Made by a program: the position numbers and the translations under genes. Positions 12,955-63,548 of a stretch of 64,000 bases of DNA are shown piece by piece. How positions within the stretch are numbered: position 1 is the first letter of the stretch; the number at the start of each line of letters is the position of its first letter. Below the pieces are notes generated by a model. It worked only from the letters and a program-made list of their open reading frames with translations. It made no database searches and was not told where the DNA came from. Origin of the DNA: an uncultured Alphaproteobacteria bacterium (lineage in GTDB: Bacteria; Pseudomonadota; Alphaproteobacteria; Micavibrionales; CSBR16-224); the NCBI GenBank assembly GCA_950054485.1, contig CATLPD010000005.1, positions 81,194 through 145,193 of the forward strand, in the 5' to 3' direction.

Positions 12955-12983
12955 TTGACATAATTATTATAATTTGGTAAAAG
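12955..12983 (+). promoter_or_regulatory. TTGACATAA-type promoter
   Basis: TTGACA-TAAttattataatttgg-TAAAAG upstream of ORF 13015. Confidence 0.6.
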
Positions 12984-13014
12984 ATTCTGATTTATAAATT
13001 TACGGAGTTGTTTA

Positions 13015-13560
13015 ATGGCGAAAAATAATTTGTTTAATCGCATCGCAACTAAGGTCAAAAAGAAGCCCGATGATGTTTGCAGAGAAACCGGCATATTAAT
13101 GGGTATTGGTGCTATATGCGCGTTGCCATTTGATATGGGAGTGAGCCTTGTACTTACAACATTGCTGGCCGGATCGATTCCAAGTGCTGCAATTCTACAC
13201 AATTGGTCAGAACGGAAAGATGAAAACACAGCAGGACAGAATTATGCGGCTCCTGAATGGGCTGTCTTGGCTCTGAAAAAGGCTCAGGAAGATATCTTGA
13301 GTATTTATAAAAACGTAAATGACGAGACTGAGCGCGATGCAAAAGTCAAAGCCGTTCTGACCGATAAAAAAGTCCAGAAAGCTTTGGGTAAAGTCCAGAT
13401 TCTGGGTGAAAAGGGCGAACCGATTAGAAAAGCGGAATTCAAATTTGCATCGCGCTTGCGGAAAGTTGAGACTCAGGTTGTAAAGCAAATCGTTCAGGAA
13501 CAGGAAATATTGGGCGAGACGAAAATCGAAAAATCAAAAACTCAGGCTTTTGGCCTTTAA
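13015..13560 (+). CDS. Hypothetical protein, two hydrophobic segments plus C-terminal domain paralogous to 13586 ORF
   Basis: GGAG RBS, own promoter, 181 aa, sequence similarity to next ORF. Confidence 0.8.
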   Translation: MAKNNLFNRIATKVKKKPDDVCRETGILMGIGAICALPFDMGVSLVLTTLLAGSIPSAAILHNWSERKDENTAGQNYAAPEWAVLALKKAQEDILSIYKNVNDETERDAKVKAVLTDKKVQKALGKVQILGEKGEPIRKAEFKFASRLRKVETQVVKQIVQEQEILGETKIEKSKTQAFGL

Positions 13561-13585
13561 TTATTAACCCTGAAAGGAAAAAGAG

Positions 13586-13945
13586 ATGGAAAACAAAACA
13601 GAAAAACAGCGTATGAAAGAATATGAAGCAAATCGATATCAAGCTTTTAAAGAATCGAGATCCGAATATTGGCTGAACGCTGCAGGGCAAACGGTCTATT
13701 CATGGGAATCAGGCAAGCAAACTCTGGAGCGTGCCGAAAGAAAAATTGCAAAACTGAAATCAGAGGCCGGTCAACCTGCAAAAGGTTTGGCCAAGATATT
13801 CGGAAAAGAACTGACACAGGAAAAAGCAAATCAAAAGATCAGCCGTATTTTGAATTCAAAAGCTGTGAAAGAGGCTATCCGCACCAGTGAAATTGTTGAT
13901 ACAAAACGTCAAGTTATTCGCGGTGCAAAATTTGAATGGAAATAA
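13586..13945 (+). CDS. Hypothetical basic protein, paralog of 13015 C-terminal domain
   Basis: AAGGA RBS; NAAGQ...IRGAKFEW aligns with NTAGQ...IRKAEFKF of upstream ORF. Confidence 0.8.
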   Translation: MENKTEKQRMKEYEANRYQAFKESRSEYWLNAAGQTVYSWESGKQTLERAERKIAKLKSEAGQPAKGLAKIFGKELTQEKANQKISRILNSKAVKEAIRTSEIVDTKRQVIRGAKFEWK

Positions 13946-60551: not shown

Positions 60552-60635
60552 TTTTGCTCATTGAATCGTAAAGCTTTATTAACCAAATTTATGTAGAATG
60601 GTAATAAGGTTTAATAGATAAAATTTTAGATAAAT

Positions 60636-60664
60636 TTGACGATTTTATCGAAAATGACTTATAA
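60636..60664 (+). promoter_or_regulatory. Putative sigma70 promoter of dotA
   Basis: TTGACG-N17-TATAAT near consensus. Confidence 0.65.
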
Positions 60665-60770
60665 TAAAGGAATGTGCACAACTTTCGGATTCGTCCGAGA
60701 TATATACAGAAAAATCAACGGACAAGTTTGATTTAATGTAGTATTTAGTAAGGTAAGAGCGGGGCCTGAC

Positions 60771-63548
60771 GTGAGCGATAAAGATTATAATTTCAAAGCA
60801 CCATCAACGAAATCTGTTTTGGCATTTTTATTTTTGCCGGAATTTAAACGGTCTTTCCCTGCCTTTGCGCACATTGGCCCGATTTTTATTCGCACAATTG
60901 CGATTATGTTTGTTCAGGCTGGCTTGTTGCGCCCGAACCACCCGGCTGTCATGTATGGTCTGGCGAAAAATGTTCCACAGTTCAAATTTTCAGACCTGAT
61001 TGGCGAGGCGTGGTATAACCTGCGTGTTAACGAAGGAAATACACCATACCAATATGGTATGTTTATCGGCGTCATTATGATGATCTGTCTGACCGTAGTA
61101 ACTGCTTTTATGTTTCTATTGAATTTATTCGTAAGTTCGGCTCAGGCACAGATTTTTGCACATCCCACCATTAATACAGATGTTTCTGCCGCTGTCGGCA
61201 ATACTGGTACCGGTATTTATCAGGTAAACCCGACCAGTCCGGATTTTGCGATTGATATTTTAAACAAAGTTGTTCGCCAATCTGCATACGGTGACGGTGC
61301 GCCGCTTTCCGTGGGTTTGGGTGCTGTAATGGGGGTTTACAATACAGCACTGCTTGTGATTGCAGCCCTGGTTGTTTTCTGGGCAATTATTTCAATTATT
61401 GTAGATACAGCGCGCACCGGACAAATTGGCGGCGGTCGTCATTCTATTGTCTGGGTTCCAATTCGTTTTGTATTTGCTTTGGCTTTGATGATACCTTTGG
61501 GGACGGGGTTCAGTGGTGGACAGGTTATTACTTTAAAGATTGCTGAATGGGGCTCAAACCTTGGTACTAATGGTTGGATTGCCTATGTGGATCGAGTTAA
61601 TGATGCCACTTTGATTTCATCAAAAACGCCTTCTGACGAGACAGCCGTCGATCTGGCTGTGGGATTGGCAAGAATTGAAATCTGTCGACAAACCTATAAT
61701 GCTTTGAATGCGCAAGCATCCGGCTTTTTATCAAATTTATCGAACGCTTTGACAGGTACTGGAGGTGGCGCTGATGCGATCGCTGACATGTTTAGAGCGG
61801 GGAGTGTTTCTGCTGCTTCGGGGTCTATGATATATTACAGATATCAGGGACTTTTGTCTGGCTTGAACGATCAGCCACGCCCTCCGACATGGGGTAACTT
61901 GGGTTCCGGCTTTCAACCCCGTTCCGAAGTCCAATTGTATGTTGGTAATGATATGGTCGCAGATTACTGTGGTAAGTTAACAGTTCAAAATCCAGACCCT
62001 CTTTTGAATAGGAATATAACTCAATTCGGTAGTCTGGGGACCCAATTGACAGCCGCTGCTACGACAGCAAAACAAGCGCATTTTAATGCATTCTTTAATC
62101 ACATACCAAACGCGGCATCTCAGGTCGCATGTGGATTGACACATGAATGGAATGAATTTAGCGAGCCATTATGTTCGGGCGTTGACACGACATTTGGGAA
62201 TGATCAGACGCCTAGTCTCGATATATTACAACAGGCTGCAACCAGCTATTTTAACGATGTGAACGCGGCTAATACAGCTGTTTACAATACTCTTGTAAGC
62301 TATGTGACATCAGATGACTTCCTGACAGAAATGAAGGATCAGGGCTGGGCAGGAATGGGTGTCTGGTATTTCAAGATCCAGCAGATGAATCAGGCTATGA
62401 ATGCGATTTTAAAGCCAACGGTAATGATCACCCCAGGTTCATTGGAAGGGCATAGCCGTGATAGCTTGGTGACAAGCCTTTTCAAGGACAAAGAAGAAGA
62501 TGAGGTTCTTACAAAAACAGCCACAACGATCGAGAAGTTTGATGGTTGGTGGACATTTGAATCTTTAGAGGCGGATCCGGATAGCCTTATTGGGCGTTTT
62601 GCAGCTAAAAATGTGACCACACAAGGTGTTGAAGATGCGACATCTGGTGGATTGACGCAATATTCTTCGGGCGGTTCCGGGGTGGTCGACTACCTATTGA
62701 ACAAAATCTTTGGTGATCTAAGTAGCGACTTTACATTGATCGATATTGGTGACCAAGACGTCTATCCTCTGACACAGCTTATGGATATTGGTGATTACAT
62801 GTTGACCAGCGCCTTAGTCGGTTATGTGGTAGTTGCCCTATTGTCTGTAGTCGGTGACTCAACACCTGTTCTTGGTGGTGCTTTGGGCGACTTGATTGGA
62901 ATGCTTTTGACAACGCTCTTATTTGTAGGGTTAATGTTAAAATATTATATTCCAATTGTCCCATGGATACGTGTCACGTTTGCTGTCTTGTCTTGGATTG
63001 CATCCGTATTTGAAGCTGTGATTATCGTACCGCTGCTTGCTTTGGCAAACTTAAGTACCGAAGGCGAAGGGCTCTTTACGCAAACAGGGCGTAACTTGTG
63101 GATATCATCTCTTAATGTGATAATGCGACCAATTTTGACAGTTATTGGCTTTATTGCCTCGATTTTGATGTTCAACGCCATGGTAGGTTACGTGAACAGT
63201 ACTTTCAATGTTGCCTTAATGTTGAGCGGGCATACAGGGGGAATGTATACGTTCCTGAGTATCATTGTCTATTCTGTTATCTATATGTTTGTAATCTACA
63301 CCCTAATGAATGCAACATTTAAGACGATTGATACTTTACCTGACGTCGTTATGCGATGGATGGGCGGACCACAAGATGTCAATTTCCAAGACAGCAATAT
63401 GGAGGGTTATATTATTGCTGCGAGCCAATACGGTAAACAAGTTGGAGCCGGGCTTCAAAAAGGTGCTCAGAATACGGGAGCAGCAGCTGGCCGTGGAATT
63501 GGTAACTTTATGAAGAATAGAAGAAATAGCACTGAATCTGATTCCTAA
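60771..63548 (+). CDS. dotA: DotA/TraY family type IVB secretion inner-membrane protein
   Basis: TARTG..GG.....W.PIR.....ALM.P...GFS..Q, GWAGMG.WY, YYIP..P....F....W...V.EAV...PL, ..RP.L...GF, LPD.V.RW.GG; large periplasmic loop between TM clusters. Confidence 0.88.
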   Translation: MSDKDYNFKAPSTKSVLAFLFLPEFKRSFPAFAHIGPIFIRTIAIMFVQAGLLRPNHPAVMYGLAKNVPQFKFSDLIGEAWYNLRVNEGNTPYQYGMFIGVIMMICLTVVTAFMFLLNLFVSSAQAQIFAHPTINTDVSAAVGNTGTGIYQVNPTSPDFAIDILNKVVRQSAYGDGAPLSVGLGAVMGVYNTALLVIAALVVFWAIISIIVDTARTGQIGGGRHSIVWVPIRFVFALALMIPLGTGFSGGQVITLKIAEWGSNLGTNGWIAYVDRVNDATLISSKTPSDETAVDLAVGLARIEICRQTYNALNAQASGFLSNLSNALTGTGGGADAIADMFRAGSVSAASGSMIYYRYQGLLSGLNDQPRPPTWGNLGSGFQPRSEVQLYVGNDMVADYCGKLTVQNPDPLLNRNITQFGSLGTQLTAAATTAKQAHFNAFFNHIPNAASQVACGLTHEWNEFSEPLCSGVDTTFGNDQTPSLDILQQAATSYFNDVNAANTAVYNTLVSYVTSDDFLTEMKDQGWAGMGVWYFKIQQMNQAMNAILKPTVMITPGSLEGHSRDSLVTSLFKDKEEDEVLTKTATTIEKFDGWWTFESLEADPDSLIGRFAAKNVTTQGVEDATSGGLTQYSSGGSGVVDYLLNKIFGDLSSDFTLIDIGDQDVYPLTQLMDIGDYMLTSALVGYVVVALLSVVGDSTPVLGGALGDLIGMLLTTLLFVGLMLKYYIPIVPWIRVTFAVLSWIASVFEAVIIVPLLALANLSTEGEGLFTQTGRNLWISSLNVIMRPILTVIGFIASILMFNAMVGYVNSTFNVALMLSGHTGGMYTFLSIIVYSVIYMFVIYTLMNATFKTIDTLPDVVMRWMGGPQDVNFQDSNMEGYIIAASQYGKQVGAGLQKGAQNTGAAAGRGIGNFMKNRRNSTESDS

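Follow-up and report, generated by a model that had tools for sequence, protein, structure and literature searches.

A nine-base site avoided in coding DNA marks scattered orphan genes with basic C-terminal tails in Micavibrionales: a candidate regulon of Dot/Icm effectors

The DNA analyzed here is a stretch of 64,000 nucleotides (hereafter the window) from an uncultured alphaproteobacterium of the order Micavibrionales (assembly GCA_950054485.1, contig CATLPD010000005.1, positions 81,194 to 145,193), whose genome (G000) amounts to 2.28 Mb in 12 contigs and is rated 99.99% complete. Sequencing runs containing at least half of the stretch are marine metagenomes, and no RNA run covering window positions 12700–22600 was found among those listed. 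A sequence-only reading of the window, made without database searches, had reported a nine-base sequence, TTGACATAA, at the -35 position of promoters preceding orphan genes, and had proposed an undescribed regulon of effectors exported by the Dot/Icm (type IVB) secretion system, one gene of which, dotA, closes the window. The five sites lie exactly at the positions given (12955, 13969, 21359, 39176 and 43028), all on the + strand; shuffled versions of the window contain 0.71 matches on average, and none of 100 shuffles reaches five.

The first site (12955..12963) doubles as a -35 box with an imperfect -10, and stands back to back with the recA promoter. It precedes an orphan of 181 aa (13015..13560, +) with one predicted membrane segment, a weak C-terminal tail of net charge +1 and no Pfam or NCBIfam family, for which an Atlas search returned only leads below threshold, and a likely co-transcribed orphan of 119 aa (13586..13945, +) with a basic tail of net +3. 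Between the recA promoter and this site lies a GAAC-N7-GAAC repeat (12913-12927), presumably an alphaproteobacterial LexA box; SOS regulation of the 13015 orphan is therefore possible as well. The second site (13969..13977), with a TAnnnT -10 box at 17 bp, heads two Gly-rich orphans (14032..14654, +), one of 122 aa, predicted to have two membrane segments, with a tail of net +4, the other, starting at 14400, of 84 aa and net 0. The third (21359..21367, -10 at 17 bp) is located within the flagellar cluster, in front of tandem paralogous proteins of 363 and 268 aa with basic tails (21419..23375, +). Their description as an ankyrin pair is borne out by weak Pfam Ank matches for both (21419 and 22569), by Atlas ankyrin clusters and, for 21419, by an ankyrin fold lead; a single weak homolog was found elsewhere. 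The fourth site (39176..39184), also listed at the matching place of a same-genus genome (G001:C54:2229-2237), precedes a sequence-divergent glutamate-cysteine ligase with a C-terminal extension (39250..40710, +), whose gshA-like nature is supported by a GCS2 family match. This gene is not divergently transcribed, as had been stated, and stands in tandem with the upstream rsmE gene; its copies in three relatives carry basic C-terminal tails containing Pro, and a second, more distant copy exists in 3/5 relatives. The fifth site (43028..43036), followed by a partial repeat and by a -10 box at 16 bp, heads an orphan of 116 aa with two predicted membrane segments and a tail of net +6 (43088..43438, +). 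As claimed, the ORFs at 13015, 13586, 14032, 14400 and 43088 have no Pfam family.

The proposed promoter spacing held for three of the five sites (13969, 21359 and 43028, with TAnnnT at 16–18 bp), those at 12955 and 39176 having imperfect -10 boxes, while the 12 nucleotides shared by the 21359 and 39176 sites are a chance identity: two random members of the 89 genomic sites described below agree in the next three bases with p = 0.041, and five sites make 10 pairs. The recA and atpH promoters lack the TAA extension, as previously read, and no site was detected in the tested stretches upstream of dapA, of the rsmB-family gene and of dotA.

The whole genome contains 89 copies of TTGACATAA, all of them outside the bodies of the 2257 genes called with a simple codon model, whose start positions are approximate. 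Most lie 48–69 nt from a same-strand start (85/89 within 300 nt), and two of the remaining four precede short uncalled ORFs. With 78 copies against 5.9 expected, TTGACATAA is the most over-represented intergenic 9-mer, and 85 of the 452 upstream TTGAC sites continue with ATAA, the next variant accounting for 17. The logo consists of an A-rich flank, TTGACATAA, TG and then TAnnnT at 17 bp, a spacing found at 66/89 copies (74/89 at 16–18 bp), with the TG extension at 41. By their sequence, these predicted promoters match the RpoD (sigma70) type (TTGACA, 17-bp spacer, TAnnnT). The extension is absent from the 90 nt upstream of all 37 tRNA genes and from the 16S upstream region.

Downstream of TTGACATAA are 84 distinct genes (the targets), which were compared with 150 randomly drawn operon-head genes, the first 100 of which were scanned for Pfam families. 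At E <= 1e-5, with target proteins cut to 600 aa and the five window genes scanned separately, a family was assigned to only 10/84 targets (16 at 1e-3); thus 74/84 targets versus 24/100 controls are without one (Fisher p 3e-19), and the site is not equally frequent in front of core genes. Among the targets are ankyrin, patatin, protease-inhibitor and deamidase-like proteins and small membrane proteins, together with Sec/lipoprotein-type proteins and ordinary enzymes (P450, MOSC, AAA, gshA-like). As a set, they have the traits expected of effectors in being lineage-restricted, scattered, low in GC (0.437 versus 0.477 in controls) and mostly devoid of Sec signals; a Legionella-type Glu-rich C-terminal block was not found in them. 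An N-terminal [LIMV]xxxF pattern occurs in 32% of targets and 5% of controls. One group, formed by the ORF L033:369-890 and its paralogs, is a family of at least nine membrane orphans of 160–177 aa on four contigs, several with the site, and has nine 50%-cluster representatives only in a library of 1.8 billion proteins.

A second label, unseen by the sequence-only reading, lies at the other end of these genes. The last 15 residues of the targets have a mean net charge of +2.9, versus +0.1 in controls (p 9e-15), with 0.77 instead of 2.17 Asp/Glu, and Pro is enriched at positions -3 to -5 (0.15–0.19 versus 0.05–0.06); the charge is confined to these 15 residues, and no fixed spacing pattern was found in the Lys/Pro-rich tails. 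A rule defined post hoc on the targets (last 15 residues with net charge >= 3, or >= 2 with a Pro) flags 60/84 of them, the charge of these tails coming from Lys and Arg. In sets that had no part in its definition it flags 64/92 orphans behind other variants of the site and 18/31 downstream operon partners, against 13/76 family-bearing controls, 3/17 site-less orphan controls and 17/133 predicted Sec proteins. In one orphan family the basic tail is kept in 8/8 homologs that are 29–40% identical. Translation through terminators was considered as the origin of the tails and rejected, inverted repeats of at least nine bases being found in 1/176 versus 1/76 cases; a reading-frame test for a tail artefact was non-discriminating. 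In the window, the 177-aa orphan interrupting DUF983-surf1 (55385..55918, -), counted in the earlier repertoire, has a strong Lys/Pro tail of net +5 and no exact site, only a one-mismatch copy upstream. We consider the basic tail fairly likely to be an export signal.

The nine bases first noticed as a fixed extension of the -35 box turned out to be one placement of a wider, orientation-free site, TTNNCATA(A/T), which has 350 copies in the non-coding 13% of the genome and 188 in the remainder. Evaluated against a dicodon-aware null, its form TT[AGT][ACT]CATAA is found 10 times in coding DNA where about 170 copies are expected on both strands (sense 5 versus 31, antisense 5 versus 137), in every possible frame, while four of the control motifs differing by a single base give ratios of 1.03–1.23. 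Most of the top depleted non-homopolymer coding 9-mers belong to this one site family, with observed/expected counts of 0/41 for TTTTCATAA, 0/22 for TTTCCATAA, 1/26 for TTGTCATAT, 3/30 for TTGCCATAA and 0/11 for TTGACATAA; TTAACATAA is one of the variants avoided least (4 versus 9), TTGAAATAA is not depleted (41/38.5), and TTGACA itself is barely avoided (ratio 0.85). T1-T2 and C5-A6-T7-A8-(A/T)9 form the core of the depletion; certain substitutions at positions 1, 2, 6 and 7 leave it partial (0.4–0.6), a graded profile such as a binding protein would typically produce. Selection against false start codons was rejected as a cause, because the depletion affects both strands and extends out of frame. 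A count of TTKHCATAA was uninformative.

With respect to the -35 box, 82 copies of the wider site lie at offset 0, others being reversed at +6 (9) and +17 (5) or forward at -12, -8 and +22; among the non-coding sites, each direct-repeat spacing is seen at most twice, and no pair spacing is preferred. The site is found within 110 nt of 212 further genes; the 145 with a strong proximal copy, a set that includes divergent bystander genes, were scanned for families, and 92 of them are without one. The two window promoters that had been described as related to the TTGACATAA type also carry the wider site, in reverse orientation to the gene. The variant TTAACATAA (46521..46529, +) overlaps the -10 region of a 172-aa orphan with a tail of net +6 (45973..46491, -), and TTTTCATAT (49196..49204, -) sits in the promoter spacer of a 66-aa orphan without family and with a tail of net +4 (49246-49446). 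The 17 bases at 49189-49205, which comprise the -35 box and the reversed TTTTCATAT site, recur at G000:C1 near 410135 (minus), the two copies preceding unrelated small orphans. A further variant, TTTACATAA (8144..8152, +), is putatively a site upstream of a NarL/LuxR-type response regulator (7391-8056, minus).

Coding avoidance together with sites in either orientation across RpoD-type core promoters best fits a candidate repressor. Provided that a protein binds the site, we consider it probable that these near-consensus promoters, with sites in varied positions and orientations, are repressed by one abundant protein. The same regulon and cargo could instead be governed by an activator, or by a co-factor of RpoD acting over the -35 box, the reversed and displaced sites having other roles. 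Such a factor would account for the 82 sites in a single -35 geometry, as opposed to at most nine in any other, and for the A-rich flank at -7/-6 and the fixed spacing, but the promoters as they stand agree with the RpoD consensus and have an extended -10, and sites that are reversed or lie over the -10 box also head tail-bearing orphans, which would rather suit steric repression; we regard activation as quite unlikely.

The system is not confined to this genome. The full promoter pattern is present in 95/101 Micavibrionales genomes (median 8 copies, 46 genomes with at least 10, maximum 92), whereas whole-genome counts do not exceed five copies in any of 298 other Alphaproteobacteria, a set that leaves out one member of the order and genome G080. 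For TTTYCATAA relative to its reversed control, the median ratio is 0.87 in 94 genomes of the order versus 1.81 in 56 others, in what is a crude test, as the genomes are related and those with under 40 counts were dropped. Within 200 kb of G035, a genome of the other family, coding DNA again avoids the site (4 observed, 16.8 expected), and the pooled DotL loci do likewise (2/12.6). The link between site and tail is repeated in G035 (16/23 complete ORFs behind a site; 11/14 versus 58/160). A general association of the site with Dot/Icm systems was rejected, as 10 other DotM-bearing alphaproteobacteria, G080 left aside, have 0–3 promoter copies. These distributions also bear on the idea that no dedicated factor exists and that TTGACATAA is simply the strongest RpoD promoter of the lineage, acquired by newly arrived genes. 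It would agree with the enrichment of tail-bearing genes behind canonical TTGAC promoters lacking the site (15/41), but it fits poorly with the rarity of the promoter form in other Alphaproteobacteria, with the tRNA and 16S promoters devoid of the extension, and with the absence from coding DNA of variants unable to act as a -35 box, such as TTTTCATAA and TTTCCATAA, when TTGACA is nearly unaffected; we judge it very improbable.

As for the secretion machine, the search for further dot/icm genes, on which the earlier proposal depended, recovered a core set distributed over four chromosomal loci: dotA in the window; dotI, dotH, dotG and dotN with probable dotF and dotO; dotD, dotC and dotB; dotM and dotL. 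The dotA gene (60771..63548, +) encodes the inner-membrane component and scores 266.8 bits as DotA/TraY (TIGR04346, family cut-off 100), with no site in its upstream 250 nt. The core apparatus (DotA, B, C, D, G, H, I) is complete, DotH, DotI, DotC and DotD having Pfam matches and DotI and DotN being at or above the NCBIfam cut-off, while DotB, DotD and DotG are best hits below the Legionella-level cut-offs. The DotL-DotM-DotN coupling complex is likewise present, DotL and DotM matching solved structures with E values of 2e-143 and 1e-21, and the DotM match in a Micavibrio metagenome-assembled genome shares 58% identity. Probable DotO/IcmB and DotF were assigned by position and size to ORFs of 994 and 386 aa at the expected places, the former with a weak TraC-type match. 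For the adaptors, PF12608 (IcmS) gave no match in this or any control genome; IcmW was not searched. DotA was found in 41/41 relatives and DotL in 40/41. An IncI-type conjugation system was rejected, since the genes are spread over four loci and conserved order-wide and no PF03432 relaxase was detected in G000 (the control search matched 2/14, other relaxase families not being searched); one TraG-D coupling-protein match was found. Two stretches next to dot/icm genes deserve mention. Adjoining the main cluster and hslVU, L021:10721-14427 (G000:C1:279429-283138, minus) holds six tandem ORFs of about 200 aa, at least one with site and basic tail; after dotD-dotC-dotB, the stretch from L036:15065-15949 to L037:5487 encodes a TcpQ-domain protein, three unannotated secreted-type proteins and an M23/lysozyme-like peptidoglycan hydrolase.

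DotL (L045:4699-7353; G000:C1:729898-732555, minus; relatives L159-L187) ends in a long, low-complexity tail of 283 residues and net charge -43, which is acidic in 24/28 complete copies. Its repeated Trp-centred SW-x-D-V/I-I-G motifs may be adaptor docking sites; in about half of the relatives the tail ends in a different, helix-like motif. Charge complementarity between cargo tails and DotL is partly supported by these data; with DotM it was rejected, as this protein is basic. The notion that the coupling complex reads the tail is weak.

The search for the regulator did not find it. None of the matches to OmpR-type (6), LuxR-type (2) and HTH_3 (6) domains, nor any of those from the Pfam scan of 106/117 small operon-head proteins (TetR, Lrp, MarR, two HU/IHF-type proteins and CarD), could be connected with the site. 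One candidate is the sole sensor regulator of LuxR type (L087:2250-2975; G000:C3:269493-270221), whose own promoter has two near-matches. CtrA, CckA and MucR are present in the genome, and SciP was not found in it. CtrA was rejected because its own TTAA-N7-TTAA boxes are intact (52 versus 17–36 at other spacings), and such a box lies within 150 nt of only 5/84 targets. For MucR, a degenerate, AT-rich motif has been published (PMC4083442). By manual reading, the helix-turn-helix of DnaA appears canonical, and RpoD, RpoH and four ECF types make up the six sigma70-family factors, with no FliA-like factor among them; given this set and the canonical appearance of RpoD region 4.2, an alternative sigma factor is unlikely. 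A regulon of the PmrA/CpxR (OmpR) type was set aside, tandem direct repeats at a fixed period being absent.

We thus favor, at somewhat better than even chances, the explanation that TTNNCATA(A/T) is the operator of one abundant lineage-specific repressor gating about 170 scattered orphan genes that encode predicted Dot/Icm substrates. The putative protein would bind the nine bases and repress by occluding the -35 box, the spacer or the -10 box, and TTGACATAA would be the commonest form because only three bases beyond a consensus -35 are needed. Release would come at a life-cycle switch, most plausibly in the attack phase, when the cells swim freely, and would let cargo accumulate ahead of contact. 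Export would then depend on the last 15 residues, basic, acid-free and Pro-rich, as a signal recognized by the DotL coupling complex, and a minority of the targets would belong to the regulon without being secreted. Since 13 of the 14 dot/icm genes checked are without site, machine and predicted cargo would be regulated separately. The proposed timing rests solely on hypothetical genes topping the attack-phase list of Micavibrio aeruginosavorus. Of the effector regulon as first proposed, the orphan enrichment and the dot/icm core set stand and the shared tail adds independent support, while the unmarked secretion operons and the Sec/lipoprotein-type or enzymatic targets do not conform to it. 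We regard the site as real and order-wide, and the effector reading, drawn from sequence comparison, as strong but unproven.

Several observations weigh against the favored explanation. Family searches did not identify the binding protein. The tail rule flags 27% of all proteins, strict tails also occur in some housekeeping enzymes (5/67), and tail-bearing genes, as said, lie behind site-less promoters too. Sec-type targets number 2/84 by a strict heuristic and about six by manual reading, and the tail frequencies of Sec-type and other site-bearing genes (2/5 versus 122/171, p 0.15) do not differ significantly. In a relative, G025, coding avoidance is weaker (25/48) and site and tail are not linked (1/13 versus 28/185); in another, G016, the DotL tail has a net charge of +23 despite 22 promoter copies, and DotM (net +18) is itself basic. 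The Dot/Icm signals described in the literature are acidic or hydrophobic rather than basic (PMC5802825, PMC12981334), and 4/5 icm/dot genes annotated in M. aeruginosavorus have their higher values during attachment (PMC3189940). Some of these points, namely the lack of a site-tail link in G025, the dot/icm operons without site and the Sec/lipoprotein-type proteins and enzymes among the targets, would be expected, as would their higher AT content, if the site governed a regulon, of the life-cycle or the xenogeneic-silencing kind, made up of young, lineage-specific genes acting mostly inside the cell or its envelope, with tails serving stability or membrane or nucleoid binding and Dot/Icm merely co-resident. 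We nevertheless find this unlikely, because in G000 site-less orphans and Sec proteins have tails at background level, and because the targets include ankyrin proteins, patatins and small membrane proteins that lack signal peptides, all typical classes of effector cargo.

Like the Icm/Dot regulons of Legionella and Coxiella (PmrA, CpxR, Fis), the proposed one would place many scattered, low-GC, lineage-specific genes under a shared upstream element. The PmrA and CpxR boxes are tandem repeats, whereas here a single asymmetric 9-mer, often fused with the -35 and strongly avoided in coding DNA, is used; CpxR also controls four icm/dot genes, while the dot/icm operons here are unmarked, and the tails are basic, not Glu-rich. 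In those regulons 42 effector genes are activated by PmrA, 26 are under CpxR control and about 30 are repressed by Fis proteins (PMC13555631). Regulatory elements together with orphan status are known to predict effectors (PMC2701608), and the Pro at -3 to -5 echoes the rule of a hydrophobic residue or proline at -3/-4 cited in the same work. In type IVA (VirB/D4) effectors the coupling protein recognizes a positively charged C-terminus (PMC12981334); the charge is the same, but the machine here is type IVB with DotL/DotM, and the tails are Lys/Pro-rich without fixed spacing. The kib T4BSS of Pseudomonas putida IsoF delivers a toxin into other bacteria on contact and is a recently acquired island with one known effector-immunity pair (PMC9519443), in contrast to the four order-conserved chromosomal loci and the predicted repertoire of more than a hundred genes described here. 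The CtrA/SciP/MucR G1-phase switch of Caulobacter resembles our proposal as a repressor-gated, phase-specific set in an alphaproteobacterium, and differs in that CtrA keeps its own boxes here, SciP was not found and the MucR motif is unlike the sharp 9-mer.

In M. aeruginosavorus, most of the top attack-phase genes are hypothetical, and according to the genome paper nothing points to a type IV secretion system, although its expression table lists icmO, icmB, icmL, icmT and dotB (PMC3189940); enzyme-name look-ups in that table gave none that could be tied to site-bearing genes. The presence of Dot/Icm in Micavibrionales is already in print, a later survey doing no more than count seven members with such a system (PMC9418006). 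Among the matches listed for Micavibrio secretion and for TTGACATAA, which include few subscription papers, there was no description of the site, the regulon or the tail. Extended to the order, the favored explanation would mean that Micavibrionales live as predators or parasites by means of an ancestral chromosomal Dot/Icm system with a Legionella-scale repertoire of 150–300 fast-turnover proteins bearing basic Lys/Pro export tails that differ from known Dot/Icm signals, under one master repressor whose site is purged from coding DNA, new genes joining by acquiring three bases next to a -35 and a short tail. This is plausible, at slightly less than even chances. Site and tail point to a candidate global regulator and possibly to a new type IVB export signal. 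As two independent computable labels, they turn hundreds of hypothetical genes into a list testable in a cultured predator. They bear on the means by which Micavibrio, staying outside its prey, kills it and feeds on it, and the tail-bearing targets offer a source of candidate antibacterial proteins; the target cells of the predicted injected arsenal may be prey or host, bacterial or eukaryotic.

Lastly, three tandem secreted-type orphans follow the atp operon in the window (29776-31861), with near-identical signal peptides and acidic tails; a TTTTCATAT site at 29658 lies about 120 nt before the first of them.

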